Assembly (NCBI GenBank): GCA_021789095.1
Contig: JAJYJX010000001.1
Coordinates: 1-34,644 of the forward strand
Reading direction: 5' to 3'
Length of the DNA stretch: 34,644 nt
Source of the DNA: a bacterium
Lineage (GTDB): Bacteria > JAMCPX01
Shown: positions 2,450 to 33,996 of the stretch, one piece after another
Layout of the letters: each line of letters starts with the position of its first letter
Numbering within the stretch: position 1 is the first letter of the stretch
Translations under genes and position numbers: made by a program
The notes under the pieces: generated by a model
Databases searched by the model: none
What the model was told of the DNA's origin: nothing
What the model saw: the letters and a program-made list of their open reading frames with translations, nothing else

Positions 2450-4884
2450 TGAAAACGGACAACAACAATACATACAAAGTTCCATTATTGCCCCTGAGAG
2501 ATATTGTTATATTCCCCCATCAGACGACGCCCCTGATAGTGGGCAGGCAGAAATCCGTCAATGCGGTAAAAGAGGCCATAAACAATAATTCGTTCATATT
2601 TACAACAATACAAAAAGACCCCAAGATAGAGGACCCGAGAGAAAATGACATATATGCTACAGGCACTCTTTCATCAATAGAGCATCACATCGTTGAGAGC
2701 GACAACATAAAACTGCTTGTAAAAGGGGTCAAGCGCGGCAGGGTTAGATCATACAATGATACGGGAGTTTATGTTTATGTTGAGGTTGAGGCCGTAGAGG
2801 ACATCGTAAAGGACACACTGGAAATAGAAGCTTTAAAGAGACAGCTTATATCTGCGTTTTCCGAGTATGCAAAGAATACCAATCTCATAGCCCCTGAAGT
2901 TGTGGCATACACCACGGCCATTGATAATCCATCCGTACTCGCGAATTCCATTGCAGGCAGCATAAAGATGAAGTCGGAAGAGAAACAGAACCTCATAGAG
3001 ATAGCAGAGCTTGACAAGTACATGAACAAGCTGCTCGAGAGACTCTTTGGAGAGATAGAGATACTCGACATCGAGAAAAGGATTAAGGCGCAGGTGAAGA
3101 AACAGACAGAGAAGGCCCAGAAGGAATATTATCTGAATGAACAGATGAGGGCTATACAGAAAGAGCTTGGTGAAAAGGATGAATTCAAGACAGAGATTAA
3201 AGAGTTAGAGGATCGCATAAAAAAGAAAAAGATGTCTGAAGAGGCCCACAAACGGTGCAAGGGCGAGCTGAAGAAGCTCAGGATGATGTCTCCGATGAGT
3301 GCCGAAGCAGCAGTGGTGAGGAGCTACCTGGAGTGGATACTATCATTGCCGTGGTATGAACATACAGAAGAGAAAAAAGACATCAATGAAGCGAAAAAAG
3401 TGCTGGACAGGGATCATTACGGACTCGAGCAGGTAAAAGAAAGGATCCTCGAATTCCTGGCTGTCAAGGCGCTGAGTCCCGATGCCAAGGGCCCCATCCT
3501 GTGTTTTGTAGGGCCTCCCGGTGTCGGCAAGACGTCTCTTGCAAAATCTATAGCGGAGGCAACAGGAAGGAATTTTGTAAGACAGTCACTTGGAGGTGTA
3601 AGGGATGAGGCAGAGATCCGCGGTCACAGGAGGACATATGTAAGCGCCCTTCCTGGGAAGGTCATACAGTCGATGCGAAAGGCCGGTTCATCTAATCCTG
3701 TTTTCCTGTTCGATGAAATAGACAAGATGAGCACCGATTTCAGGGGTGATCCGTCAGCAGCACTTTTAGAAGTACTCGATCCCGAGCAAAACCATACGTT
3801 TAACGATCACTACCTTGACCTTGATTACGACCTTTCGAAAATCATGTTCATCACGACTGCAAATACAGTTGCGGGCATACCTCCGGCTCTGCTTGACCGT
3901 CTGGAGATAATAAGGCTGCCGGGGTATATAGAGATTGAAAAGCTGAATATCGCAAGGAATTTCCTGATCGCCAAGCAGTTAAAGGCAAACGGGGTCAGCC
4001 AGGATCAGCTTGCTTTCACCAGTAATTCCATTATCAGGATCATAAGGGATTACACGCGTGAGGCAGGGGTGAGGAACGTGGAGCGCGAGATTGCGACTAT
4101 TGTCAGAAAGGTTGCAAAGCATATACTCGAGACGGGTGAATCGAAGAAGAGGAATACAATAAGAAGTTCAAACCTCGAGAAGTATCTTGGTGTGCCGAAG
4201 TATAAGAGGAGTGAACTTGAGGAAAAGGATCTTGTCGGCGTTGCAACCGGTCTTGCATGGACTGAAGCAGGCGGCGATATCCTTGCAATAGAGTCCGCAG
4301 TGCTGAACGGCAGGGGCAAGCTTACCGTTACAGGCAAGCTTGGAGAAACAATGAGAGAATCTGCAAGTGCAGCACTGAGCTATGTAAGGACCATATCTGC
4401 GGACCTTGGTTTAAAAAAAGAGTTTTACAGGCATATAGATGTACACATACATATACCGGAAGGTGCAATACCCAAGGATGGACCATCAGCAGGCATTACA
4501 ATGGCTACTTCGCTCGTATCCGCTTTGACAAAGATCCCCGTAAAACGGGATCTCGCCATGACCGGCGAGATCACCCTGAGAGGCAGGATACTTCCTATAG
4601 GGGGGCTCAAGGAAAAACTTATGGCCGCAATGCGGGCCCAGATAAAAGAGGTGCTTATACCGAAAGACAACGAAAAGGATGTTGAAGAGATACCGGACAT
4701 GATAAGGAAATCGCTCAACATCATGTTTGTCGAACATATGAATCAGGTTATAGAAAGGGCTCTGAGGGTTGATTCACCCGAACAGATATGGAAGGGCAGG
4801 ATAAAAGCGGATGTGCAGCTTCCTGCTATGAGCCAGACAAGCGAAATACCTATACCGCCTGCACAGCCGCAGCCGAACAATTAG
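2449..4884 (+). CDS. lon: Lon protease (LonA type)
   Basis: ATG 2449 overlaps the clpX stop as TAATG. It has a Lon N-domain (LPLLPLRDIVIFPH), Walker A GPPGVGKT, Walker B FLFDEIDK and the protease Ser context PKDGPSAG. The track's start at 2362 adds an implausible 29-aa extension inside clpX. Confidence 0.95.
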   Translation: MKTDNNNTYKVPLLPLRDIVIFPHQTTPLIVGRQKSVNAVKEAINNNSFIFTTIQKDPKIEDPRENDIYATGTLSSIEHHIVESDNIKLLVKGVKRGRVRSYNDTGVYVYVEVEAVEDIVKDTLEIEALKRQLISAFSEYAKNTNLIAPEVVAYTTAIDNPSVLANSIAGSIKMKSEEKQNLIEIAELDKYMNKLLERLFGEIEILDIEKRIKAQVKKQTEKAQKEYYLNEQMRAIQKELGEKDEFKTEIKELEDRIKKKKMSEEAHKRCKGELKKLRMMSPMSAEAAVVRSYLEWILSLPWYEHTEEKKDINEAKKVLDRDHYGLEQVKERILEFLAVKALSPDAKGPILCFVGPPGVGKTSLAKSIAEATGRNFVRQSLGGVRDEAEIRGHRRTYVSALPGKVIQSMRKAGSSNPVFLFDEIDKMSTDFRGDPSAALLEVLDPEQNHTFNDHYLDLDYDLSKIMFITTANTVAGIPPALLDRLEIIRLPGYIEIEKLNIARNFLIAKQLKANGVSQDQLAFTSNSIIRIIRDYTREAGVRNVEREIATIVRKVAKHILETGESKKRNTIRSSNLEKYLGVPKYKRSELEEKDLVGVATGLAWTEAGGDILAIESAVLNGRGKLTVTGKLGETMRESASAALSYVRTISADLGLKKEFYRHIDVHIHIPEGAIPKDGPSAGITMATSLVSALTKIPVKRDLAMTGEITLRGRILPIGGLKEKLMAAMRAQIKEVLIPKDNEKDVEEIPDMIRKSLNIMFVEHMNQVIERALRVDSPEQIWKGRIKADVQLPAMSQTSEIPIPPAQPQPNN

Positions 4885-6865: not shown

Positions 6866-8673
6866 GATTCCAGCAACAGTTTGATCTCACCTGCATATTG
6901 TTGTTCAGGTGCAAGTTCAAGGCTTTTTTTAAAGTATTTTATGGCAAGCTGTTGATCATGATAGTACCGTGCTGTTATGTAACCAAGCATGCGCCATGCA
7001 TCAGCGTCAAGCGGTTTCAACGCAACAAGTTTTGCAAGCAGGTTTCTTGCCTCGCTTACCTTGCCTGTCTGTACATAGATATATGCAAGCTTTTCATATG
7101 CCGGAACATAAGGTGCCGCATCAACTGCCTTGATGAGCAGTGCAACGGCCTGATCGATATGATTCTGATTTCCGGCCAGGGTTATCTCTGCCATTTCAAA
7201 GTATATCATCGCCTTTAATGTTGAGGGGGTGTCTCCGAACCCTGGCAAAACAGCTATGTCAGCATGACCTTCTTTTTCGAGCTTGTTGAGCTGGCTTAAA
7301 GCCTCATCAAGCATGGCCTGTGCCCTGGTGTAATCACCTGTGTCTGCATAAGCCTTTGCTATAAAGTATTTCATTGCGACAAAGTCGGGTGTTCTGCTGA
7401 GAAGTTTCCTGCCGTATTCGATACCTTCGTACGGTTCGTTGTTCCTGAGATAAGCGGCTGACAGTGACATAAGAATAGAAGTATCGTCACCAACAGCATG
7501 GAGAGAGCTTGTCCACATGCTTATCTCGTTTTTCCATACAAATTGCCTTTTGAATCCCAGGAACCCGTAAACAAGCAGTATGAGAGCAAGGAACACATAT
7601 GCAATCTTTTTATTATCAATCCTGTTGATAGAAATTACCAGTGTGGTGTACACGCCGATAGAGGCTATGTAGAGATACCAGTTTGCAAAGAACGGCATCG
7701 CGATAATGCCGTAATAAGGCAGCATATTTGCAAAGTACCAGATGATCCAGAATACAAGTAGGAACTCCTTTCTTTTCACCAGTTCTTTAATGCCGATGAT
7801 TATAAAGACCATTATAAGAAGGCTGAGAACGAATCTTGTATTTGAAACTATTGCATCAAGGGGATACGCTATAGAAAGTCTTACAGGAAAAAGCAGCTTT
7901 GAGGGGTATTCGGGCAACCCGGCCATAACTGCAATAACGGTTTTTGTATTTGACCAGAGGCTGTTGCCTATAAGGCCGTGATAAGAACCGATAGTCGCCT
8001 GACCTATCATGAAAATGATCATAAACACCAGAGAGGCTGATGCATAAGGGAGAAGATTAAAGATACTGTTTTTCATTGTCTTGCTGTTGATCAGATCATA
8101 CAGGAACATCATGATTATAAGGGTGGCCCCCGGTGCCTTGACAAGTAACCCGAGAATAAACCCGATGAACGAGCATGCGTAAAGGCTTTTTCTATTCCTG
8201 CTTCTGTACAGCGTATAAAAGTAAAACCCCGACAAAAAGAAAAATAATGACTGCGTGTTTTTCAGTTCCGCTATCCATACCGCCGAATCTATGTTGACGG
8301 GTGATACAAGAAAGAGGAGTGAAGAAAATAATGCCGTGATCCTGTCATGCTGGATCTCATCAACGACCATGTATACCATTACGCCCGACAGTATATGGAA
8401 GATAATCCCGGTCAGGTGGTAAGCCATTGCGTGATAACCCGATATACGGTAAAGGAGCATGTAGGTAAGATACTGAATGGGTGCATATACGCCGTGATGA
8501 AACGAGGTAAAGAAATAGATGATATTGCTCATGGAGAAGTGCCTTATGTACACATTGTCCGTTACATAGAAGTTGTCGTCCAGGTTTACGAACCCGAACC
8601 GCAGTGACGGCAAAAGCATCAGAAATGTTACAACGCTTATAAGTAATATGTCAGGCCATTTTCTTTTTGTCAT
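6844..8673 (-). CDS. Polytopic GT-C-type (PMT/TMTC/ArnT-like) glycosyltransferase fused to C-terminal TPR repeats, paralog A
   Basis: It has the same architecture as 5009-6865. The first-loop motif FVNLDDNFYVTDN matches the F-x-x-DD-x-x-x-I-x-x-N signature I recall for TMTC/DUF1736-type enzymes. It also carries WYFANMLPYYGI and C-terminal TPRs. It overlaps the downstream paralog by 22 nt. Confidence 0.6.
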   Translation of the reverse strand: MTKRKWPDILLISVVTFLMLLPSLRFGFVNLDDNFYVTDNVYIRHFSMSNIIYFFTSFHHGVYAPIQYLTYMLLYRISGYHAMAYHLTGIIFHILSGVMVYMVVDEIQHDRITALFSSLLFLVSPVNIDSAVWIAELKNTQSLFFFLSGFYFYTLYRSRNRKSLYACSFIGFILGLLVKAPGATLIIMMFLYDLINSKTMKNSIFNLLPYASASLVFMIIFMIGQATIGSYHGLIGNSLWSNTKTVIAVMAGLPEYPSKLLFPVRLSIAYPLDAIVSNTRFVLSLLIMVFIIIGIKELVKRKEFLLVFWIIWYFANMLPYYGIIAMPFFANWYLYIASIGVYTTLVISINRIDNKKIAYVFLALILLVYGFLGFKRQFVWKNEISMWTSSLHAVGDDTSILMSLSAAYLRNNEPYEGIEYGRKLLSRTPDFVAMKYFIAKAYADTGDYTRAQAMLDEALSQLNKLEKEGHADIAVLPGFGDTPSTLKAMIYFEMAEITLAGNQNHIDQAVALLIKAVDAAPYVPAYEKLAYIYVQTGKVSEARNLLAKLVALKPLDADAWRMLGYITARYYHDQQLAIKYFKKSLELAPEQQYAGEIKLLLESWKTNKQ

Positions 8674-9180: not shown

Positions 9181-9260
9181 GTCATTCCGTGCTGTGACAC
9201 GGAATCCAGTCTTCTGGTTTTTCGGATTCCTACTTTCACAGAAATGACGCAATTCTGTGA
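9181..9260. repeat. Imperfect palindromic intergenic (REP/MITE-like) element with two hairpins
   Basis: The outer arms are GTCATTCC...GGAATCC (9181-9207) and GGATTCC...GAAATGAC (9224-9248). Hairpin 1 pairs ATTCCGTG (9184-9191) with CACGGAAT (9198-9205). Hairpin 2 pairs TCACAGAA (9236-9243) with TTCTGTGA (9253-9260). Confidence 0.45.
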
Positions 9261-9322
9261 CAAAGCAGCGGAGATCGAAAAAAGGCATTGTAAGAGCGAT
9301 TAACAAAAAGAAGGAATTATAT

Positions 9323-11194
9323 ATGAAGATCAAAAAATTAAATAAGTACGTATGGTTCATCGGGTTGCTGTTGTTATCAGTAACAATGAGTATATCCGGC
9401 ATTGGTTGTAACAGTGGTGGTGGATCGGGCAGTAATTTAGCTAAGAAAAATATAAGCAGAATAGGTGGAGCAGCCAGTAACAACACCGGTAGAAGCAGGA
9501 TTCCTGCAGGCACCCCGGGCAGTGGTTTTTCTGCGACCTGCTACGACAATGGTGAGATCTATGTTGCCAATCAAAGTAGTAATTCCATTACCGTGTATAG
9601 CAGGACAGCCTCAGGAAACGTGGCGCCCCTGCGTACTATATCAGGTACTACCACTGGTCTATATAGACCAGGTGGCATTACAGTAGATACTGTGAACAAT
9701 GAGATCGATATTGTTAATGGTAGTGATAATTATTATAATAATTCCATTACCGTGTATAGCAGAACAGCCTCAGGAAACGTGGCACCCCTGCGTACTATAT
9801 CAGGTACTACCACTGGTCTAAATAGTCCAAATGGTATTGCAGTGGACACTGTTAACAACGAGATCGATGTGGCAAATCACTATGGACCCGTTACTGTTTA
9901 TGCACGAACTGCCTCGGGAAATGTGATGCCGCTGCGTATCTTTTATCCGGGCATATTTTCTTATATGAAATCCTTTTGGGGTATTGCTGTGGATCCTGTT
10001 AACAACGAGATCTATATAACAGATAATGTTAATGGTATGGGAATCCCTTATCAGACTGCCATTATTGTATATCCACGGACAGCCTCAGGAAACGTGGCAC
10101 CCCTGCGTACTATTTCAGGTACTACCACTGGTTTGGATTGGCCATGGGGCATTGCAGTGGATACGGTGAACAATCAGATAGATTGTTCCTCAGCTCAATC
10201 TTCTGCTTCTACAGGCTGTATGCTCGCAGGTGCCGTAGACTGTAATAATGGATATTACTGTCTATCAGGAACAATGTGTGCCCAGTCAGGTGGGCAGACT
10301 ATGTGCTATACTGGCTTTTGTGCAGCAACCTGTTCTGATGGTAGCTGCTGTCCTTCTGGTTATACTTGTGCTCCTAAAGGTGGCTGTATGCCATCAAGTG
10401 CTGTAGACTGTGGTAATGGATATTGCTGTCCATCAGGAGCAACGTGTGCCCAGTCAGGTGGGAAGACGGTGTGTGATAGCGGCACCTGTGGAACAACCTG
10501 TTCTGATGGGAGCTGCTGTCCATCAGGTGATACATGCGCTTCCATAGGTTGCATACCGACAGGCGCTATAGATTGTAGTAATGGATACTACTGTCCATCA
10601 GGAACAACATGTGGACAAGCGATATTTACAAGTGGGCAGACTAAGACTGTATGTAATGGAGGTGCTGGTTCAGTGGCATGTTCGGATGGAACTTACACTT
10701 ACTGTCCATCGGGCGATACGTGTGCTTATGCTGGTGGTTGTATACCATCGGGTACTGTAGACTGTAATAATGGATATTATTGCTCAGCTGGAACAACATG
10801 CAGCCCGACGACAAATGGACAGACGGTATGCAATCCGGTTGCGCCGAGATATTCATGCAGTGGAAGTTCCTGTGTATCCGATCCAAATGGTAGCTATACC
10901 GCCTCTAATTGTAACAACGCTTGCGGCGGAGGAGGTGGCGGTAGTACCTGCTCAAGCGACTCGGATTGTTCAGCTTTTGGGACGAACTGCTGTAGCGGCA
11001 GGAGCAATGCCTTCTGCGAATCCGATCACCTATGCCATTGTTGTGAAGTTCTCTGTGGTGGAGTTAGTGGTAATTGTTACTGTAATCCTTCCTGTTCGAG
11101 TTCATCGGGTTGTCCTACTGTCGGGGATGTCTGCTGGGAAAGTGCATGCACATTCCCTCTGGGCGGTGCTCCAAACAACCTGACTTGCCAATGA
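9323..11194 (+). CDS. Secreted (probably lipoprotein) beta-propeller-repeat protein with a long cysteine-rich repeat tail
   Basis: ATG 9323 follows AAGGAA (9311-9316). The signal sequence MKIKKLNKYVWFIGLLLLSVTMSISGIGC has a lipobox-like SGIGC. There are four NHL/YncE-like blades (ITVYSRTASGNVAPLRTISGTTTGL..GIAVDTVNNEID). These are followed by repeated modules VDCNNGYYCPSGTTC...CSDGSCCPSGDTC. I count about 55 Cys in the last roughly 340 residues. Confidence 0.75.
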   Translation: MKIKKLNKYVWFIGLLLLSVTMSISGIGCNSGGGSGSNLAKKNISRIGGAASNNTGRSRIPAGTPGSGFSATCYDNGEIYVANQSSNSITVYSRTASGNVAPLRTISGTTTGLYRPGGITVDTVNNEIDIVNGSDNYYNNSITVYSRTASGNVAPLRTISGTTTGLNSPNGIAVDTVNNEIDVANHYGPVTVYARTASGNVMPLRIFYPGIFSYMKSFWGIAVDPVNNEIYITDNVNGMGIPYQTAIIVYPRTASGNVAPLRTISGTTTGLDWPWGIAVDTVNNQIDCSSAQSSASTGCMLAGAVDCNNGYYCLSGTMCAQSGGQTMCYTGFCAATCSDGSCCPSGYTCAPKGGCMPSSAVDCGNGYCCPSGATCAQSGGKTVCDSGTCGTTCSDGSCCPSGDTCASIGCIPTGAIDCSNGYYCPSGTTCGQAIFTSGQTKTVCNGGAGSVACSDGTYTYCPSGDTCAYAGGCIPSGTVDCNNGYYCSAGTTCSPTTNGQTVCNPVAPRYSCSGSSCVSDPNGSYTASNCNNACGGGGGGSTCSSDSDCSAFGTNCCSGRSNAFCESDHLCHCCEVLCGGVSGNCYCNPSCSSSSGCPTVGDVCWESACTFPLGGAPNNLTCQ

Positions 11195-19373: not shown

Positions 19374-21632
19374 ATGTTCATGAAGCAGATTCTTTTGTAT
19401 ATAATGCCTTATTCAGATTATGTTCAGAAAGTACTTGCAAACTACAACGGCAGAATAACGGACATTGGTACCCAGATCATGTGGGGAGCTGTTTTGTTTT
19501 TAGCACTGATATTATCTATTTTTCACTTAATACGCAAGAAAAGAGAACCGGCTTCAGAACCAAATGCTCTGTCTCTGGCAATGAAAGCAGGCAGGCTTTC
19601 GAAGATCGGCGACTACCTAAATGCAGCAAAACTCTATGAAAGGTCGGGCAATCTCCAGCTTGCCGCAGATGCATACTATAAGGCAGGAATAGTTTACTAC
19701 GCTGCACAGCTTTACAAGAGGCTCGGTATTAAAGAAAAGCAGGCCTCTGCATTTGAACAGATAGGTTTTCATAAAGAGGCAGGTGAACTGTACAGGGAAT
19801 TGTCTATGTACAAACAGGCAGGGGAGAATCTGTTAAAAGCCGGAGAACTGTTGAAGGCCGCAAATATGCTTGAAACAACAGGGGAGGCAGAAAAGGCTGC
19901 CGATACTTATATGGCTGCAGGGTTCAACCTTCGTGCAGGAGAACTCTATACAAAGCTGGGAGACAAATCCAAGATTGCAGCCGCGTATGAGGCATCGGTT
20001 GTTATTCCGAAAGGGGATACAGTGCCGAGGGCAATAACGAATTATGCTATGAGGGCAATCCCCGCTTATATTGCCGCAGGCAATATGCAAAAAGCAGCAG
20101 AAGTTGCAGAAAGGGCCAGTTTAAAAAAGTATGCAGCAGAACTTTATTGCAAGTTGGAAAACTGGACAAAGGCAAGCGAACTTTACCTTTCGGAAGGTGA
20201 CAAAAAATCAGCAGCGGATGTTATGGAAAAGGCCGGATGGCACGAACAGGCTGCACTTGTGAGGGCATCTTACTATGAAGAAAGCGGCATGAAACGTGAA
20301 GCAATACAGCTATACGAGAAGACGGGCAGGCTGGATGATGCTGCGAGACTTTACGATTCAATAGGCGAGAAGGCAAAAGCAGCAGAGTTATACGCGACGG
20401 CTGGCAAAACCATTGTTTCCGCATCTATATTCAAGGAAATAGGTTACATAGACAAGGCCCTGTCAATCCTGGAATCGGCCGGTGAGGCTGATAAGCAGAC
20501 AGATGAAGCAAGGGTATTAAAGCTTGATCTGCTGATGGAAAAGGGCATGTACAAAGAGGCAAGGTCTATTATTGAACAGATGCTTTCAGGCACTTCTCCG
20601 GCAGCATCGAACATGCATCTCTATTACAGGCTCGGCGGTATATACGAGGAAGAAGGCAAGGCAAAGGACGCAGTGGGTATCTATAATAAGATTGTGAAGC
20701 TTGATCCTGATTACATGGGTGTGAAAGAGCGCATCGAGAGACTGAAGCGTATTACAGAAACAGCGTCTCCGTCTGTTATTGACCAGTATGCCCAGACCGT
20801 ACTTCTTTCCGATAAAGGCGAAGGCATACTTTCAAAGCGCTACAAACTTATTGAGGAACTGGGCAGGGGGGGTATGGGTATAGTTATAAAAGCGCAGGAC
20901 ATAGTTCTTGGAAGGACCGTAGCCATCAAGATCATGTCAACAGGCGGTGCATCGGATCCCAAGCGTATAGATGCCTTTATAAGGGAAGCAAGGACATCGG
21001 CGTCCCTTAATCATCCGAACATTGTAACTGTTTACGATGTAGGCGAAGACAGGGGCGCATTTTACATAGTAATGGAGTTTGTAGAGGGCAAGGTCGTGAA
21101 GAAGTTCCTTGAGGAGTATCATGACGGGATACCGATACAGCTTGCAATATTTATAGCTGTACAGATGCTGAAGGGCTTGGCGTATGCGCATGAGAAGGGT
21201 ATAATCCACAGGGATATAAAGCCGTCGAATATCATGTGGACGCCAAAAAGGGTTGCAAAGCTTATGGATTTCGGCCTGGCAAAGGCGATGGAAGAGATAA
21301 AGCACGGTGAGACCATTGTTGGCGGTACGCCGCTTTACATGTCGCCCGAACAGATACTCGGGGAAAAAACGGATGCAAGGACGGACATATATTCGTTCGG
21401 GTGTACCCTTTATGAATTGCTCACGGGCAAGCCGCCTTTTGCACAGGGAGATATAGGTTATCATCATATTCATACCAATCCACCCCCCCTGGGCGATGTA
21501 AATGCCCAGGTGCCAGGCTGGCTGTCTGATATTACAATAAAATGCCTTAACAAATTGCCACAGCATAGATACCAGTCCGTAGAGCAGTTGTTTAATGACA
21601 TACAGAAGGGCTATAAGGGCATGAAAGGGTAA
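19374..21632 (+). CDS. Membrane-anchored Hanks-type Ser/Thr protein kinase with N-terminal helical-repeat/TPR array (kinase domain C-terminal)
   Basis: It has one TM helix (WGAVLFLALILSIFHLI followed by RKKRE), about 430 aa of A/K/Y/G-rich helical repeats and one clear TPR. The kinase motifs are LGRGGMGIV, VAIKIM, HRDIKPSNIM, DFGLAK and GTPLYMSPEQ. Confidence 0.85.
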   Translation: MFMKQILLYIMPYSDYVQKVLANYNGRITDIGTQIMWGAVLFLALILSIFHLIRKKREPASEPNALSLAMKAGRLSKIGDYLNAAKLYERSGNLQLAADAYYKAGIVYYAAQLYKRLGIKEKQASAFEQIGFHKEAGELYRELSMYKQAGENLLKAGELLKAANMLETTGEAEKAADTYMAAGFNLRAGELYTKLGDKSKIAAAYEASVVIPKGDTVPRAITNYAMRAIPAYIAAGNMQKAAEVAERASLKKYAAELYCKLENWTKASELYLSEGDKKSAADVMEKAGWHEQAALVRASYYEESGMKREAIQLYEKTGRLDDAARLYDSIGEKAKAAELYATAGKTIVSASIFKEIGYIDKALSILESAGEADKQTDEARVLKLDLLMEKGMYKEARSIIEQMLSGTSPAASNMHLYYRLGGIYEEEGKAKDAVGIYNKIVKLDPDYMGVKERIERLKRITETASPSVIDQYAQTVLLSDKGEGILSKRYKLIEELGRGGMGIVIKAQDIVLGRTVAIKIMSTGGASDPKRIDAFIREARTSASLNHPNIVTVYDVGEDRGAFYIVMEFVEGKVVKKFLEEYHDGIPIQLAIFIAVQMLKGLAYAHEKGIIHRDIKPSNIMWTPKRVAKLMDFGLAKAMEEIKHGETIVGGTPLYMSPEQILGEKTDARTDIYSFGCTLYELLTGKPPFAQGDIGYHHIHTNPPPLGDVNAQVPGWLSDITIKCLNKLPQHRYQSVEQLFNDIQKGYKGMKG

Positions 21633-27566: not shown

Positions 27567-28076
27567 CTATAATATCTCCACAGCGCAGATGATGATCATG
27601 ATGATCGCTATGATGCCTTTGAAGATCGTGCCTTTTAACCTTCCTATTGCGGACACCCATCCCTTGTGCAACGCGTCGGCTGCCTTCTTGTTTTCTATTA
27701 TTGACACTGCAAACGCGCCTGCAAAGGCCCCGAGCACGGCACCTATGATCGCGCCTATGCCGAGCAGGAACGGAGCAAGCACAATGGATCCGGCGATCGC
27801 CCCTAGTATGGATGCTGTCATTGCCTTGCGGGAAACGCCCGCTTTTCTTGCGTCCTTTATGCCGAACAGCGTTTCCCCAAGTTCCGCAATAATCGTGAGG
27901 ACCGCGAGCACGATGACGGTATACCAGCCGATGTAGTGCGCCTTTGTCAGCAGGACAAATATTAAGACAGATACAAATTCTATAATGGTCCCGGGCAGAC
28001 CGAACACAATGGAAATGGTTGCAATGCCCATAACAACAAACAGGAGTATAATAAAGAATATATGCAGTGCTGTCAT
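27567..28076 (-). CDS. DUF456-family small membrane protein
   Basis: It has four hydrophobic segments and the pattern GLPGT...ELGE...RKAGVSRKA...G-rich helices that I associate with DUF456. It starts 1 nt after the accD stop. Confidence 0.55.
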   Translation of the reverse strand: MTALHIFFIILLFVVMGIATISIVFGLPGTIIEFVSVLIFVLLTKAHYIGWYTVIVLAVLTIIAELGETLFGIKDARKAGVSRKAMTASILGAIAGSIVLAPFLLGIGAIIGAVLGAFAGAFAVSIIENKKAADALHKGWVSAIGRLKGTIFKGIIAIIMIIICAVEIL

Positions 28077-28077
28077 A

Positions 28078-28923
28078 TTACGAAGCAGTGAGCTTCTTCT
28101 CTGTATTCCCGAGGAGTCTTATGATTTGGGTGATCGTTTTCTTTATCACTTTTCTCTCGATAACCATGTCGATCATGCCGTGCTCGAGCAGGAACTCCGC
28201 GCGCTGGAACCCCTCGGGCAATTTCTGGCCTATGGTATCCGATATGACCCTTGGTCCTGCGAAGCCTATCAAAGCCTTTGGTTCAGCTATTATTATATCA
28301 GCAACACTTGCAAAGCTCGCAGCAACCCCGCCTGTCGTCGGGTCAGTGAGGAGTGCAAGGTACAGGGTCTTGTTCTTCTTAAGCCTGCTTAATGCCGCAT
28401 TTGTTTTTGCCATCTGTACAAGCGAGAAGATGCCTTCCTGCATCCTGGCCCCTCCCGAAGATGTAACGATCAGAAGGTTTGATTCTTCCTGCGCGGCCTT
28501 CTCTATCAGTCTTGTAATCTTTTCACCCACAACGCTGCCCATGCTCCCGCCCATGAAATTGAAGTCGAATATCCCGATATTGATGAACATGTCGTTCAGG
28601 GTTCCGTATCCTGTAACAACAGCGTCGTTTACACCTGCTTGTTTCTGTGCCTCTTTCAGCTTGTCCCTGTATCTTGACCTGTCTTTGAAATCGAGCGGGT
28701 CGATTGACTCGATGTTGTCCCATAATTCATGAAAGGTGTTCTGGTCAATGAGTATATCGATCCATTCCTTTGCAGACATCCTGAAGTGATAGTTGCACTT
28801 CGGACAGACCTTCAGGTTCTTATCGACCTCTTTCTTATAGACGATCTCGCCGCAGTTGTTGCACTTTAACCACAGGCCATCAAGGCTGCTTTTTGTTTTA
28901 CTGTCAGAACCAAACAAGGGCAT
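28078..28923 (-). CDS. accD: Acetyl-CoA carboxylase carboxyltransferase beta subunit
   Basis: It has an N-terminal zinc ribbon (CNNCGEIVYKKE...CPKCNYHFRMSAKEWID) and a carboxyltransferase core (GGSMGSVVGEKI, SGGARMQEG). Confidence 0.92.
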   Translation of the reverse strand: MPLFGSDSKTKSSLDGLWLKCNNCGEIVYKKEVDKNLKVCPKCNYHFRMSAKEWIDILIDQNTFHELWDNIESIDPLDFKDRSRYRDKLKEAQKQAGVNDAVVTGYGTLNDMFINIGIFDFNFMGGSMGSVVGEKITRLIEKAAQEESNLLIVTSSGGARMQEGIFSLVQMAKTNAALSRLKKNKTLYLALLTDPTTGGVAASFASVADIIIAEPKALIGFAGPRVISDTIGQKLPEGFQRAEFLLEHGMIDMVIERKVIKKTITQIIRLLGNTEKKLTAS

Positions 28924-28924
28924 T

Positions 28925-29686
28925 TTATATTTTTATAACCTGGTTAAGCTTTACAGCTTCCATATGCAGGCCTTTCTTCTGCTTCAATTCTTTTACAACC
29001 TGTTTATAGAACTGGGGCTTTATATGGTAGACATAAACAGGGACATTCCTGCTGATCTTGCGTACCTCCTGCGCAACCATCTTAGGCGTCAGATGCTTTG
29101 ACAGGATTGAAAGTTCTTCTTTCTCATCAGGGTATGAACACTCTATGAATACTGCCTTCAGGTTATCTTTCTTTGATGCCATCTCCCAGATCCTGTCTGT
29201 CGGCCCTGTATCAGAACTGAACACCACGCTGCTTTTACCGTCATCCAGTATAACCCCGGATGCCGGTACCGTATGACTGACAAGACACAGCGTAACTTTC
29301 AGGCCGTCGATCTCGATCGTAGATTCACTCTCTGCTTCTTTCATCCTTATGACAGGTTTTTCCTTGCTGGGTATCTCCGTAAAGTCAGGCCAGATGTGCC
29401 AGTTCAACAGGTGTTGTTTTATATGGCTGAGCACAACAGGCATGCCGTATATGGTAAACCCCTTGCCGTTTACGCTGACGCTGTTATCGGCAAGGAACAG
29501 GGTATCCCTGCAGTGGTCAGCATGGGCATGGGTAAGAATGACATGCTCTACCCGGAGCTGTTCTTTTAAGGTGAGCACACCGGTGATCGCACCGCCGTCA
29601 AGTATAACGCTTTTGTTTATAAGGAATGAAGTTGTCCTGAAGTTGGGCAATTCACCGCCGTGACAGCCCAGCACTCTTATATTCAT
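28925..29686 (-). CDS. MBL-fold hydrolase resembling class II 3',5'-cyclic-nucleotide phosphodiesterases
   Basis: MNIRVLGCHGGELPNFRTTSFLINKSVILDGGA and the metal motif THAHADH resemble the class II PDE (CpdP/Pde1-type) layout. It lies 6 nt downstream of a cNMP-binding regulator gene. Confidence 0.55.
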   Translation of the reverse strand: MNIRVLGCHGGELPNFRTTSFLINKSVILDGGAITGVLTLKEQLRVEHVILTHAHADHCRDTLFLADNSVSVNGKGFTIYGMPVVLSHIKQHLLNWHIWPDFTEIPSKEKPVIRMKEAESESTIEIDGLKVTLCLVSHTVPASGVILDDGKSSVVFSSDTGPTDRIWEMASKKDNLKAVFIECSYPDEKEELSILSKHLTPKMVAQEVRKISRNVPVYVYHIKPQFYKQVVKELKQKKGLHMEAVKLNQVIKI

Positions 29687-29692
29687 GGCTCC

Positions 29693-30340
29693 TCACATCC
29701 CCTCGAACTGCTCTTTCATCACAAGGTAATCAAGATATTTTTTCAGGTTGTCATAGTTTCTGATCAATATGCCGTTGTTCGTCAGCTCTATAAGCCTGTT
29801 TTTGGCAAGCCTGTCCACTATCTCGCCCACCTTGTTTTTCTCCAGCCCCGTTGTAATGGCCAATTTCTCAACATCAAGCTTCAGGAAGGTGTCTGTGTCT
29901 ATCTTTGTACCGCTTTCAGCCAGTTTAAGCAGCGTAACGATGACCCTCTGGTTCGAGTCCTTTATCATAAGGTTCGCTATCTGGACATCCGCATCTTCGA
30001 GTCTTTTTGCAAGGATCCTTATTATTCGCAAGGCTATCTCCGAGTTGCTGCGGATCATTGTATCGAATGTACTGTTGTTAATGACGAGCATTTTCGCGTC
30101 TTCCACAACTTCTGCACTTGCGGAACGCGGCTTTTTATTCAGGAGCGACATCTCTCCGAAGAAATCGGACTGGCTGAGCACTGCGAGGACCTTTTCATTG
30201 CCGCCCACTTCTTTGAAAATCTTCACCTTGCCTGTGTTGATGATGTACATGTCTTCCCCTGTATCCCCCTCACGAAAGAGTATCGTGCCTTTTGGGAATA
30301 CCTTGCCAAACCTTTTAAACAGTTCATCTTCCATAAACAC
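29693..30340 (-). CDS. Crp/Fnr-family transcriptional regulator (cNMP-binding domain plus C-terminal HTH)
   Basis: cNMP-binding motifs are FREGDTGEDMYIINTGKVKI and FFGEMSLLNKKPRSASA. The HTH region is LAITTGLEKNKVGEIVDRL. The RBS AAGGGG lies just upstream of the ATG. Confidence 0.85.
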   Translation of the reverse strand: MFMEDELFKRFGKVFPKGTILFREGDTGEDMYIINTGKVKIFKEVGGNEKVLAVLSQSDFFGEMSLLNKKPRSASAEVVEDAKMLVINNSTFDTMIRSNSEIALRIIRILAKRLEDADVQIANLMIKDSNQRVIVTLLKLAESGTKIDTDTFLKLDVEKLAITTGLEKNKVGEIVDRLAKNRLIELTNNGILIRNYDNLKKYLDYLVMKEQFEGM

Positions 30341-30440
30341 CCCTTGTCAGGATAATTTATATTTCATAGCATATTTAAGGGCTTTTGTGCAAAATATAGT
30401 AACGGGAATTAAGGAGCGAAGGGTGATGTGTCCGGGAATG

Positions 30441-30536
30441 CTAAAATACTATTACTCCGAGCTTTATAAGCTTGTACAGTCTTTTCATTACTTCAAATTG
30501 CTCAACAGGGTTGATTATCTGCAGGATCTCTTCCAT
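30441..30536 (-). CDS. Possible 31-aa small ORF, or the 3' remnant of a winged-helix-like domain
   Basis: It encodes MEEILQIINPVEQFEVMKRLYKLIKLGVIVF. The same frame stays open upstream to 30647 with domain-like sequence (IPKLNINDRDIVKYNLDKVDGYSS) but no ATG, GTG or TTG. The RBS is poor. Confidence 0.2.
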   Translation of the reverse strand: MEEILQIINPVEQFEVMKRLYKLIKLGVIVF

Positions 30537-30644
30537 GGAAGAATAACCGTCTACCTTATCAAGGTTATATTTTACAATGTCCCGATCGTTTATATTTAAT
30601 TTCGGGATCTTTTTGAAATTGTGGAGTTTCTGTTTTCGATGCTG

Positions 30645-30693
30645 ATTCTAACACGGGTAAACTTACAGATTACTTACATATTACTTACAGATT
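30645..30693 (-). promoter_or_regulatory. Candidate activator-dependent promoter: three 11-bp direct repeats plus an extended -10
   Basis: The plus strand carries ACTTACAGATT (30661-30671), ACTTACATATT (30672-30682) and ACTTACAGATT (30683-30693). On the minus strand the repeats are followed by 10 nt and then TGtTAGAAT, with TG at 30653-30652 and TAGAAT at 30650-30645. There is no -35 hexamer. Confidence 0.45.
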
Positions 30694-30723
30694 GCAGAAT
30701 AGAAAAGACAAGGGGGAATGCCG

Positions 30724-33700
30724 TTAATATTTCCTTTGTAAGGAGGTATAGATTTCCCGGGTTTTGGAAGATGGCTCTATACCAAGGTTTTCTTTAAGGT
30801 TCTTATAACATGAATGATATATTGATATTGCCTCTGCATTTTGCCCAATCAGGATATAGCACGCCATCAACCGCTGATAGAATATTTCTTGAAGATGATC
30901 AACCATCAGTCCCTTATTGTAATATTCTATTGCTGCTTTCCACTCTCCATTTGCCTCACAGTACTGTCCCGCTTCTTCCAGTATATTTAAAAGCCTTCTT
31001 TGCAGCCTTTCACGATAATTCTCCGCCCAGGGGTGTGATAATTCTTTACCGAGAAATGTCCCGCGGTAAATGGATAAAATATGACTTATTATACTTGAAA
31101 TCCCATCCTGTACACCATGGGAAGTCCTGATGCCGGATGCAGAATATTTATGTCTTTTTCGTGATCCAGTCCCAGTGTTTACAGGATGATTCTTTAAAAA
31201 TGTTTCAGCTTTATCTAACCAATGCTCAATCGCCCATGTATCCACCCAACAATATCTTTTATCCAGCGTAAGCTTGCCTGCGTTGAATACTATTGCCCTG
31301 TCATTACCGAGTAATTTTCTCAGGCGGTGCAGGTTTGTGTCAAAGGCATGCTTGGCTCTATCACCGTCAGCATCTTCCCATAATGCATCAATTATATGTT
31401 CCTCACTTACGTCTTCTCCGCCGGATGCGAGGAGTACTTGAAGCAGTTCTACGGGTTTTTGGGGGACCTTCCCATTGAATCCTAATTGTTTATCTTCAAT
31501 AAACAGCTTCGGGCTCCCAAGGGTGAAGACTTTCACCGGCCATGGCCAGTCTTTGCATTCCAATGGAGGTGTATCCGGCATAAGATTTCGTTTCTTGATA
31601 AGGCTTTTCACATACTCTTTATTGATGCCAGCCTCAAGTGCTTTGACACACAGCTTGGCCATAGCAGACGGCCGCCAGCCCGGAAAGTTTACATATCCCA
31701 TATCCTGTCCAAGCTGCATTGCCCTGCGGAGAAATCTTAAACCCGATCTTTCGTTATGTTGATCAAATGCAAACAAGGCCTTTGCTATAAGATACATATA
31801 TTTAAAATGCCTCTGCTTCCTGCAGATTCGATATGTTTTGTTGAGGTAGTACAATGCCCTGGTATCTTCTGAAAGTTCGTGGAGGATTTGAGACATTTGC
31901 AGGGAGGTGAGCACTATCAGGTTTACGTCGCCTGTTTCGATAGCCGGTTTCATGCCCGTTTTCTGACTGTCGTATGTAGAAACAAAATCCTCTCTCATCA
32001 TAGCCTCGCCGGTTGAAACAATATAATATAAGGCGCGATCATACGCCCCTGCCTGTCCTATTGTTTTAGAGATCTTTTGTAAAAGCTGCCTTCCATGCTG
32101 GACATTTCCGGAACTCAGCATCCATGCGGCACCAAACGTTAAAAGTGGATGATCCATTACCTGGATTCCCGTGGTTTCAGCTACTTTTATCCCGTCGTAT
32201 AATGCCTTAAATTCAGGATCAGACACTGCCGTATACCAGCTGTATAAAACTTCTATGACCTTGAGTGTAAGAAACGTCAGGGGAGAAATCTGGTCTGAAT
32301 AAGTCAGTTTTCTCAATGGTGCAATGATCGTGTCCTCCATTGAGATATCCCCTACCGTTGAGTAGTAAAGAGCTATAATGGTACTTAATTGTATTCGCAG
32401 CTCAATAGTATCGCTGCTTTCTAAAAGAAGCGTAGCACGATTCAGCCATTTTTTAATCTTTGGATTAAAGTGCTGTCTGAAATTTAAGGCAAAGAGCATC
32501 TTAGCTACTGCTATTTTTTCTATTTCCGTAGAGGGGAAATCCTTCCTTTTTTTTACAAGCTTTTCCATGATATTTATCCATGGATCGTAGAGCCTATAGT
32601 TTCCAAGCCCATAGAATACAGAATCAACAGCCCCTGTCCACGCCATAAATATCCCGTTTTTATCTTTATTTTTTGTGAGCAGCTTGAACGCTTTTGCAAA
32701 GTAAGCGTGGCTTTCTCCGGGATTAAATGGCAATCTGCATGCACCAAACCAGTAGATAAGCCACGGGTTATTTTCACGCAGAGCATCCGGTATTCCCCTG
32801 AGCCATGCCTCCAGCGTCTGGTTCCTGCCCTGGGAAATAAGCTCTTTTGCATGGAGCAGGATCAACCGTATAACCTCCGTCCAGTCCTGCGATTGATAAA
32901 ACAAGGCAACGGCATCTTCTATGTGTCCTTCTTTTTCCAATACCATCCCTGCACGGCGCTGAACCTCCGACAGTGTTTTCCGGCTCCACACATTCATTGC
33001 CCTTGAAATCAGGAACCCCCTGAACAGGTCATGGTATTGATATACAGCTTCTGAACCTGCATGCCGCGATGTAAAGTAGTGCGAATCGGCAAGGTTTTCC
33101 AAGATTCTCTCGGGAGGCGGATATCCCATAAGCTTCTCTATCATGCCTATCGTCATTTTCGGTAAGAATGCGGTTTTCAGAAAAAAGTCCTGCATCTTCG
33201 CATCTACTTGCCTGAATATCTCGGTTGCGAAATAATCAAACACCCCGGGTGTGGAGCGCGGTATAATCGATGGTCCCTCAATATTTTCCAGCCTCGCTCT
33301 CTCCAGCATAAGGATCAATCCCGCTGCCCATCCTTCCGTTTTTGCATGCAGCTGCTTTATGGTGTCTTCCGGTATTTTTTTGAACCCTCTGGCCCGGATC
33401 AGCTTTTTTGATTCCTGCATGGTGAATTTTATATCATCCCACCCGATAAAATGGATCATGTCCTTTGCCAGGAGCCTGCTGAATACGGCGGGCGGATTGA
33501 TTCTGCTTATAATAATGACATTGATCCCGTCTGGAGCTATCGCAAGACCTTCTGCGAGCAACTCATGGAGTTTTGAATCAGGGTGCAGTTCATGGTAGTT
33601 GTCGAATACGATTGTGGATGGATACCTTAACCTGCCGTATAGATTTTCAAAATACCGTCTTGTAAATATAGCAATACCGGACAAGTATTCGGGTGTGAGC

Positions 33701-33996
33701 ATGGGCAGACGATCTTTTTCCCATGGAGCGGCGTTCTTTCCGGCAAGTCCCATGTAATAAAAGAATGTCGCTATATCATCGTCCCCTTTATCCATCTGAT
33801 ACCATAAACACCCGAGTTTCTTTTTCTCTATAAAGCTGCTTACCAGTACGGTCTTGCCTGATCCGGGCGGTGCAGAGACCCATATAATCCGGCGATCCAT
33901 TTTACGGACAAGCAGACGGAACAGTCTGTCCCTGTTTATAATGCCTTTGGGACTCTGCCGTATGATTTTGGATAGATGGCCATCTTTTGATTTCAT
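30724..33996 (-). CDS. STAND-class (MalT-like) P-loop NTPase with helical/TPR-like sensor region and C-terminal SARP module (OmpR-type wHTH plus BTAD)
   Basis: Walker A is SAPPGSGKT and the MalT-like context is LGCLWYQMDKGDDDIATFFYY. The Walker B-like motif is IVFDNYHEL. The C-terminal wHTH is VKVFTLGSPKLFIEDKQLGFNGKVPQKPVELLQVLL...ALWEDADGDRAKHAFDTNLHRLRKLLG. The BTAD is YRGTFLG...EIFYQRLMACYILIGQNAEAISIYHSCYKNLKENLGIEPSSKTREIY. The RBS GGAGG (34002-34006) lies 5 nt upstream of the ATG. Confidence 0.8.
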   Translation of the reverse strand: MKSKDGHLSKIIRQSPKGIINRDRLFRLLVRKMDRRIIWVSAPPGSGKTVLVSSFIEKKKLGCLWYQMDKGDDDIATFFYYMGLAGKNAAPWEKDRLPMLTPEYLSGIAIFTRRYFENLYGRLRYPSTIVFDNYHELHPDSKLHELLAEGLAIAPDGINVIIISRINPPAVFSRLLAKDMIHFIGWDDIKFTMQESKKLIRARGFKKIPEDTIKQLHAKTEGWAAGLILMLERARLENIEGPSIIPRSTPGVFDYFATEIFRQVDAKMQDFFLKTAFLPKMTIGMIEKLMGYPPPERILENLADSHYFTSRHAGSEAVYQYHDLFRGFLISRAMNVWSRKTLSEVQRRAGMVLEKEGHIEDAVALFYQSQDWTEVIRLILLHAKELISQGRNQTLEAWLRGIPDALRENNPWLIYWFGACRLPFNPGESHAYFAKAFKLLTKNKDKNGIFMAWTGAVDSVFYGLGNYRLYDPWINIMEKLVKKRKDFPSTEIEKIAVAKMLFALNFRQHFNPKIKKWLNRATLLLESSDTIELRIQLSTIIALYYSTVGDISMEDTIIAPLRKLTYSDQISPLTFLTLKVIEVLYSWYTAVSDPEFKALYDGIKVAETTGIQVMDHPLLTFGAAWMLSSGNVQHGRQLLQKISKTIGQAGAYDRALYYIVSTGEAMMREDFVSTYDSQKTGMKPAIETGDVNLIVLTSLQMSQILHELSEDTRALYYLNKTYRICRKQRHFKYMYLIAKALFAFDQHNERSGLRFLRRAMQLGQDMGYVNFPGWRPSAMAKLCVKALEAGINKEYVKSLIKKRNLMPDTPPLECKDWPWPVKVFTLGSPKLFIEDKQLGFNGKVPQKPVELLQVLLASGGEDVSEEHIIDALWEDADGDRAKHAFDTNLHRLRKLLGNDRAIVFNAGKLTLDKRYCWVDTWAIEHWLDKAETFLKNHPVNTGTGSRKRHKYSASGIRTSHGVQDGISSIISHILSIYRGTFLGKELSHPWAENYRERLQRRLLNILEEAGQYCEANGEWKAAIEYYNKGLMVDHLQEIFYQRLMACYILIGQNAEAISIYHSCYKNLKENLGIEPSSKTREIYTSLQRKY

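Follow-up and report, generated by a model that had tools for sequence, protein, structure and literature searches.

Does the gene of a large bacterial regulator lie directly beside its own operator? The question is raised by positions 30645-30693 of a 34,644-nucleotide (nt) stretch of contig JAJYJX010000001.1 (hereafter the window), where three 11-bp direct repeats and an extended -10 element stand immediately behind the gene of a 1090-aa protein that combines a MalT-like STAND sensor with a SARP-type DNA-binding module. We hold, with a probability of roughly three in four, that the repeats and TGn-TAGAAT form an activator-dependent sigma70 promoter without a -35 element, recognised by the SARP module of the upstream-encoded regulator or by that of a paralogue.

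SARPs are known as activators of antibiotic clusters and are said to be exclusive to actinomycetes, with proteobacterial matches mostly devoid of an HTH or a BTAD (PMC7040171). Their promoters contain direct repeats phased at 11 or 22 bp, the 3' repeat being 8 bp from the -10 element (PMC10936776; PMC7040171); for small SARPs the repeats are heptamers that are separated by 4-bp spacers and lie near the -10 (PMC7040171). AfsR binds two 11-bp repeats as a dimer, in a position that overlaps the -35, and touches sigma R4; its NOD and TPR keep it inhibited until ATP binds (PMC10936776). AfsR is under study as a bacterial NLR-type transcription factor (PMC10936776; bioRxiv 10.64898/2026.09.02.748808). 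The transcription of afsS, which encodes the 63-aa AfsS, is AfsR-dependent (PMC6988585).

An 11-bp repeat array abuts an extended -10 element

The array consists of three contiguous 11-mers, read on the plus strand as ACTTACAGATT (30661-30671), ACTTACATATT (30672-30682) and ACTTACAGATT (30683-30693). All Pfam-supported open reading frames (ORFs) from 34623 down to 27567 are coded on the minus strand, and in that direction the order is AATCTGTAAGT, AATATGTAAGT, AATCTGTAAGT, TTACCCG, TGT (30653-30651) and TAGAAT (30650-30645), with the repeats 30 nt from the regulator's stop codon (30724-30726; Table 1). The A at position 4 of the middle repeat is a variant that the family tolerates (C 23 times and A nine times in the distal scanned repeat of the site matrix described below). 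Tandem Repeats Finder reported the array at period 11 with 3.0 copies and a score of 59; about 5e-5 arrays this good are expected by chance per window (periods 7-15), none of 30 first-order Markov simulations gave one, and no other copies of the 11-mer above chance level were found in the window. Positions 30330-30760 are 100% identical in L125, a second and independent assembly from this organism, and the array is therefore no assembly artefact; as evidence of conservation we rejected L125, since an identical sequence from the same organism is uninformative.

A -35 hexamer is absent, because GTAATC, 17 nt upstream of the -10, shares only 2/6 positions with TTGACA, and a search for sigma70 promoters listed nothing at the array site, as expected for a promoter of this kind. 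The proximal repeat stands at the same position relative to the -10 in related sites. An earlier inspection of the letters alone (the sequence-only reading) had placed the repeats at 30661-30693 with one mismatch, 30 nt behind the stop of the regulator, in 11-bp phase ahead of an extended -10 without a -35, the proximal unit at about -33 to -23 and all genes down to 27567 on the minus strand; each of these particulars proved accurate, and the proximal unit overlaps the -35 position.

The upstream gene encodes a MalT-like sensor with a SARP module

Pfam matches the regulator with NPHP3_N, TPR_MalT (weak), Trans_reg_C and BTAD, and a precomputed match to PF25873 identifies WHD_MalT. The NCBIfam models for MalT (residues 15-413, E 6e-52) and AfsR (residues 844-1082, E 3e-11) both match under their equivalog cut-offs. 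The N-terminal and central parts, a P-loop NOD with a Walker A motif (GxxGSGKT is nearly invariant across the family alignment), a WHD_MalT and a TPR sensor, are those of a MalT-type STAND protein. Pfam found no GerE/LuxR-type HTH effector; the C-terminus is Trans_reg_C followed by BTAD.

The winged helix-turn-helix (wHTH) aligns with AfsR residues 67-119 in phmmer, the model has a predicted local distance difference test (pLDDT) score above 90 there, and the modelled strands and helices of residues 846-899 are consistent with a winged helix, in which DTNLHRLRK is the predicted recognition helix by homology to PhoB and AfsR. An alignment of the last 270 residues with the AfsR SARP module extends over both halves of that module, and in an AlphaFold2 model of the C-terminal 280 residues (mean pLDDT 90.9) the best Foldseek match in the PDB was AfsR in a transcription initiation complex (8hvr_I, E 7e-11, template modelling scores 0.64/0.70, 279 columns), followed by EmbR (2fez). 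The OmpR-type wHTH is directly followed by the BTA domain and forms one module with it, as in SARPs, and this module stands at the C-terminal end, in the order NOD-WHD_MalT-TPR-wHTH-BTA, unlike the N-terminal module of SARP-NOD-TPR in AfsR. These results confirm that the adjacent gene encodes a SARP DNA-binding module, as the sequence-only reading had it: the regulator is a MalT-like STAND sensor with a genuine SARP module, in an order reversed with respect to AfsR, to which it is about 20% identical. It resembles AfsR in the fold of the SARP module and in the combination of NOD ATPase and TPR, and differs in that its NOD is MalT-like. With MalT it shares the N-terminal P-loop NOD, WHD_MalT and TPR, and presumably control by nucleotide- and ligand-dependent oligomerisation; unlike MalT, it carries a SARP effector in place of a LuxR-type HTH, and its predicted site consists of phased direct repeats at the -35, not of MalT boxes. 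The small SARPs (ActII-ORF4, DnrI and RedD) and EmbR share the wHTH and BTA module, but come from actinobacteria and have no domain beyond the SARP module, apart from the FHA domain of EmbR.

The nearest named homologues of the window's Obg (69-74% identity) and of the regulator come from 'Deltaproteobacteria bacterium' metagenome-assembled genomes (MAGs), which places the window in an uncultured lineage of deltaproteobacterial grade and agrees with the earlier view of a host far from the actinomycetes. The other genes of the window are those of an ordinary chromosome (tig-clpP-clpX-lon, rplU, obg, proBA, nadD, rlmH and glycosyltransferases), and no biosynthetic cluster was found among its genes, which serve housekeeping and signalling; neither the actinobacterial host nor the secondary-metabolite cluster typical of SARPs is found here. 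The regulator family is very large (>1500 proteins at E <1e-20 in one search). Literature searches returned no description of this family or of its box, a null result that is not proof of absence, and nothing relevant was found on BTAD/SARP regulators in Geobacter, Desulfovibrio, Myxococcus or Nitrospira, or on HilA with BTAD.

The box recurs at a fixed offset in related loci

We compared seven distinct loci of the closest regulator homologues (44-49% identical to the window protein), in addition to L125. A box is present at five of the seven (Table 1); at L003 the contig stops 175 nt past the regulator gene, and at L006 a transposase adjoins the former target gene. The NOD-TPR-SARP genes often occur as tandem paralogue pairs (two adjacent genes each at L001, L004, L006 and L131), and HicAB toxin-antitoxin genes or transposases lie close to the L001, L002 and L006 loci, which hints at local rearrangement.

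A blind scan with the pattern TMTGTAAGYRATMTGTAAGT gave 31 genome loci and 87 metagenome loci, reduced to 100 non-redundant sites, with 96 sites counted as independent; about two thirds of the raw matches, mostly TATGTAAGTAATATGTAAGT on AT-rich contigs and AT-rich TATGTAAGTAA runs, were set aside as noise. A -10-like hexamer lies exactly 10 nt past the box at 27 of the 100 sites, and 21 of these 27 carry the TG of an extended -10. In the 42 independent sites that have two TCTGTAAG units, TANNNT is found at +11 in 12 cases and at most other offsets in none or one, and TG at +8 in 17 cases as against about two at other offsets; a secondary TANNNT peak at +6 results from the TATGnTA consensus itself. 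Beyond the searched pattern, the matrix of 32 sites shows an A at -20 in 31 of them, a T at +8 and a G at +9. The usual box consists of two copies of RAT(C/A)TGTAAG(T/C), followed by 7 nt, TGn and the -10, and it occurs at the same -10 offset in Nitrospirota, deltaproteobacterial and gammaproteobacterial MAGs. The matrix holds no information at the place of a third repeat, and we therefore regard two repeats as the norm and the window's three as an expansion. The three-repeat operator of the sequence-only reading thus needs revision: its 11-bp repeats are real, but a related site usually has two.

At six loci the ATG of a long ORF lies 5-8 nt past the -10 (L004, L022, L126 (+23), L016 (+22), L107 (+24) and L010 (+21 after the box)), which suggests a leaderless mRNA arrangement. 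These ATGs at +21 to +24 fit a transcription start 7 nt after the -10, for which the window equivalent would be about 30638. The commonest target is a 60-80-aa protein starting M(E/D)xYI(V/I)R(I/V)YRR (14 instances, about 10 of them non-redundant), for which neither Pfam nor NCBIfam gave a match or any sequence kinship. Its gene often lies directly 3' of the regulator gene, the position that afsS takes behind afsR, and the succession of regulator, box and small gene was seen at L034, L036, L044, L066, L087, L129 and L130. No such ORF is present in the window, where the start-less remnant of a different gene appears to take its place.

Box and regulator are linked by position and by covariation

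A tblastn search with the window protein placed a regulator homologue near 7 of 23 canonical independent sites, compared with 5 of 73 others (Fisher p = 0.007); the count is a lower bound because many contigs are only 1-3 kb long, and the five non-canonical sites with a homologue, which have weaker -10 elements, are probably real sites as well. One layout recurs on a single strand, namely the regulator stop, 50-200 nt, the box, the extended -10 and the target (the window, L034 (also L065, L112), L036, L066 (also L095), L086, L087, L044 and L016).

An alignment of the DNA-binding domains shows the helix xT(T/N)(L/I)HRLR(K/R) in nearly all regulators that adjoin a TCTGTAAGT box. Two relatives have a different helix and, behind the gene, a different box: L129 (helix EMTVQRLRR) carries AATCTGTGGGT CATCCGTGGGC, 10 nt and TAGGAT at 8253-8273, and L130 (helix EMTVHRLRK) carries AATCCGTGAGT AATCCGTGGGT, 10 nt and TACTTG at 3866-3890. 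The variant box is thus TCCGTGGGT, two copies of ATC[C/T]GTG[G/A]G[T/C], with layout and small-gene target unchanged. This covariation of helix and box is, in our view, the strongest indirect evidence for a regulator-operator pair. Repeats and regulators co-occur when one starts from the regulators (five of seven loci) and when one starts from the box (the blind scan); this two-way co-occurrence, along with the covariation at L129 and L130, argues for the interpretation of the array as a SARP-box promoter that the sequence-only reading had put forward.

What the promoter would drive in the window

The first frame past the -10 opens from the TAG of that element, and no ATG, GTG or TTG precedes M38 in 30444-30647; the only ATG, at 30536, would leave 31 codons with no Shine-Dalgarno sequence. 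With the last 71 residues of P0243, a protein of 191 aa, the frame shares 52-59% identity (library-wide E 1.8e-14; pairwise E 6e-24); the homology starts about 15 nt past the -10, and P0243 is elsewhere the product of the third gene of a box-controlled DnaJ/Hsp70-like operon. The frame is most simply read as a 3' remnant, produced by a deletion that would have brought the box promoter up against the tail of an earlier target gene. Two other identities for this small ORF were dismissed: homology to the N-terminal domain of the DnaJ-TPR protein (BLASTP E = 15) and membership of the YIVRIYRR family (hhalign probability 5%).

Beyond the remnant follows an operon of crp-like, phosphodiesterase, accD-like and DUF456 genes. 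The crp-like gene probably starts at ATG 30334, with AAGGGG as its Shine-Dalgarno sequence, and not at the listed GTG 30340; the L125 call agrees. A putative separate promoter of this gene, a sigma70 consensus match, lies about 30 nt upstream of the start codon. Between the box and the crp-like gene we found no terminator-like site, no Rfam match at E up to 1, and no unusual structure of the leader (folding z-score 0.10). The earlier proposal of transcription into the small ORF and the operon therefore stands in part: the operon is in reach, but the small ORF appears to be a gene remnant and the crp-like gene has a promoter-like site of its own.

The same features could mean that the promoter class is real and the window copy a relic, with the deletion having fused it to the last third of its former target and the crp-like operon being mainly self-driven. 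The start-less frame, its full-length counterpart under box control elsewhere and the TTGCAC, 18 nt, TGcTATGAA ahead of the crp-like gene speak for this account. We nevertheless consider it unlikely, given that all three repeats and TGn-TAGAAT are undamaged and match the consensus, the one 'mismatch' being among the tolerated variants, and that the lack of a terminator-like site, the ordinary leader and the remnant itself are all compatible with read-through.

Several points weigh against recognition of the window promoter by the upstream-encoded regulator or a paralogue. The window copy could be a relic, since what first follows it is a gene remnant and a separate promoter-like site precedes the crp-like gene. 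The gap of 10 bp between the end of the proximal 11-mer and the -10 hexamer departs from the 8-bp rule of streptomycete SARPs, though the counting register is uncertain: counting TCTGTAAGT and 2 spacer bases as the unit brings the gap to 8 bp, and the registers are hard to match because the published rule counts from heptamers. In the sequence examined, a regulator gene is missing from about half of the good sites; a regulon and short contigs would lead one to expect this, yet it also fits another binder. The helix type xT(T/N)LHRLR is the commonest among the top-120 homologues; since most of them share it, the cognate paralogue is undefined and cross-talk would be expected. The covariation rests on two related loci, possibly on a single evolutionary event, and at the locus of a third helix variant (P0104, TTTLSRLRK; L131) no box was recognisable. 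The main residual doubts accordingly concern the present use of the window copy and which paralogue binds.

Comparison with Pho boxes and other alternatives

The site might also be a Pho-box-like element of a PhoB/OmpR-family response regulator, with the NOD-SARP gene a bystander. PhoB boxes lie about 10 bp upstream of the -10, in place of the -35, and the geometry of the box promoter is, by analogy, that of PhoB-type class II activation. PhoB likewise reads head-to-tail 11-bp repeats with an OmpR-type wHTH, so the phasing is common to both, and the CTGTAAG core is like the E. coli pho-box core CTGTCAT (PMC4415409), as is the L002 copy CTGTCAGT. Three observations make this reading highly unlikely. 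None of the sites examined has a pst or pho gene downstream, the targets being small proteins, transcription factors, DnaJ/Hsp70-like proteins, HD-GYP proteins and hydrolases; a PhoB probe found no OmpR/PhoB-type response regulator in the 32 canonical loci, of which 16 hold a NOD-SARP gene; and the box varies with the SARP recognition helix at L129 and L130. Unlike PhoB, moreover, the proposed binder has a BTA domain and a STAND sensor and no receiver, and no pho genes or response regulator lie nearby. We dismissed Pho-box identity on gene content and on the absence of response regulators at canonical loci. The module has the structure of a SARP, departs from known SARPs in domain order, host and biological context, and its site is not a Pho box.

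A regulator that binds the repeats in order to repress or insulate, for instance by halting read-through from its own gene like a roadblock, would accord with a box directly 3' of the regulator gene at eight non-redundant loci. We give this an even slimmer chance, as the fixed 10-nt spacing to an extended -10, the missing -35 and the leaderless ORFs 5-8 nt past the -10 are features of promoters and not of roadblocks, the box at L001, L005 and L126 lies in a divergent intergenic region and not behind the regulator, and every characterised SARP has BTA as its activation domain (PMC10936776). A tandem repeat made by slippage and devoid of function has next to no chance and is effectively refuted already by the comparative data, for although AT-rich TATGTAAGTAA arrays are common metagenome noise and 24 tandem copies of the 11-mer at L073 (44-306, TTACAGATTAC register), beside a GIY-YIG-like ORF on an AT-rich contig and in a context that appears unrelated to box promoters, indicate that the unit can expand by slippage, the box keeps the same -10 offset in MAGs of three lineages and is tied to one regulator family and recurrent targets.

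Proposed mechanism and wider significance

In the activator-dependent promoter that we favour, SARP modules of the upstream-encoded NOD-TPR-SARP protein, or of a same-helix paralogue, would bind the repeats head-to-tail, one protomer per 11-bp repeat and all on one face of the helix. The proximal protomer (about -33 to -23) would replace the -35 contact through sigma region 4 and core RNA polymerase, as in AfsR, and the extended -10 would provide the remaining promoter strength, while the MalT-like NOD and the TPR presumably hold the module off until a nucleotide or ligand binds. Transcription from about 30638 would then cross the gene remnant into the crp-like/phosphodiesterase/accD-like/DUF456 operon. 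The third repeat may just add affinity or fit a higher oligomer.

We regard it as an even bet that the window is an instance of an undescribed cross-phylum counterpart of AfsR-AfsS, in which thousands of NLR-like (NOD-TPR) sensors with a C-terminal SARP module would act through the TCTGTAAGT box, 10 bp from an extended -10, on often leaderless genes. The ancestral cargo would be the 60-80-aa YIVRIYRR protein, and the other cargo would comprise LuxR- and HTH_11-type regulators, HD-GYP proteins, the DnaJ/Hsp70-like operon and, here, the crp-like/phosphodiesterase operon. The likeness to the afs box lies in 11-bp direct repeats over the -35 of a weak or -35-less promoter (PMC10936776), and that to AfsS in small genes after regulator and box at about 10 related loci. 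The differences are the consensus, the 10-bp gap, the typical extended -10 and the frequent leaderless targets; hosts from uncultured lineages of deltaproteobacteria, Nitrospirota and gammaproteobacteria, and no association with antibiotic clusters; and, in the window, a missing small gene. As many paralogous sensors share one helix, several signals could converge on one shared box regulon.

If this is true, the SARP-type 'sigma adaptation' would be an old and general bacterial mechanism, not a speciality of actinomycetes. The data give a concrete candidate operator to a large uncharacterised family in Desulfobacterota-like, Nitrospirota and Gammaproteobacteria MAGs, together with a promoter geometry, a likely primary target in a new small-protein family and a first clue to helix-to-box specificity, and the prediction of regulons in uncultured organisms becomes possible. 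For the window itself, the prediction is a STAND sensor that would feed a cyclic-nucleotide module (crp-like and phosphodiesterase).

Table 1. Coordinates of the features discussed, in the window and at related loci.
Feature	Position or locus	Strand	Basis or remark
Distal repeat AATCTGTAAGT	30683-30693	minus	about -55 to -45
Middle repeat AATATGTAAGT	30672-30682	minus	about -44 to -34; variant A at position 4
Promoter-proximal repeat AATCTGTAAGT	30661-30671	minus	about -33 to -23; covers the -35 position
Extended -10, TGt TAGAAT	30645-30653	minus	sequence; offset peaks at related sites
Predicted transcription start, about 30638	30636-30640	minus	distance to the -10
1090-aa regulator: MalT-like NOD (P-loop), WHD_MalT, TPR, C-terminal SARP module	30724-33996	minus	Pfam/NCBIfam
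Walker A, APPGSGKT, residues 42-49 of the NOD	33850-33873	minus	translation
OmpR-type wHTH, residues 846-899	31300-31461	minus	Pfam Trans_reg_C, 28.5 bits (cut-off 26.2)
Predicted recognition helix DTNLHRLRK, residues 886-894	31315-31341	minus	homology to PhoB and AfsR
BTA domain, residues 961-1086	30739-31116	minus	Pfam BTAD, E 1.9e-19
Start-less frame, 68 codons	30444-30647	minus	open from the TAG of the -10
Putative sigma70-like promoter of the crp-like gene: TTGCAC, 18 nt, TGc TATGAA	30363-30392	minus	consensus match
Downstream operon	27567-30334	minus	Pfam; L125 gene calls agree
crp-like gene	29693-30334	minus	
MBL/class-II phosphodiesterase gene	28925-29686	minus	
accD-like gene	28078-28923	minus	
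DUF456 gene	27567-28076	minus	
Box AATCTGTAAGT GATCTGTAAGT, 10 nt, TAGGAT	L001		
Box GATCTGTAAGT GATCTGTAAGT GCCTGCA TGA TACCAT	L005		
Box TCTGTAAGC GATCTGTAAGT CCCGGTG TGG TAAAAA	L004		
Box GATCTGTAAGT CTTCTGTAAGT TACCTCA TGC TACACA	L126		
Box, degenerate pair	L002		copy reads CTGTCAGT
ATG of leaderless-type ORFs	L004 2108; L022 6124; L126 1067		
YIVRIYRR-type genes	L034 3901-, L036, L044, L066, L069, L087, L090, L107, L123, L129 8328-8519, L130 3946-4167		
Other target: DnaJ-TPR/Hsp70-like/191-aa operon	L019, L032, L127		
Other target: PAS-GerE regulators	L028, L033, L010, L126		
Other target: HTH_11 proteins	L001, L005		
Other target: receiver protein	L004		
Other target: HD-GYP/GAF/PAS protein	L022		
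Other target: alpha/beta hydrolases	L020, L023		
Other target: large secreted or NHL-repeat proteins	several		

Additional observations

At L106 (1121-1623), an ORF that starts only about 60 residues before its wHTH has a box 94 nt upstream; the contig ends within this ORF, which may encode a SARP-only relative with a box in its own promoter. A similar pair, TATGTAAGCAATATGTAAGT, is found in a Clostridiales MAG (L009, 2440-2459), 70 nt upstream of an OmpR-type response-regulator gene (2530-3168) and in the opposite orientation; the pair may serve that response regulator itself and is probably part of another system. Ser/Thr kinases control AfsR in Streptomyces, and the window holds, on the plus strand at 19374-21632, a 752-aa ORF with TPR and a Ser/Thr protein kinase. 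Also on the plus strand, at 10214-10613 inside the ORF 9257-11194, a 168-bp tandem repeat (2.4 copies, 79% matches) encodes the Cys-rich repeat of an NHL-repeat protein.

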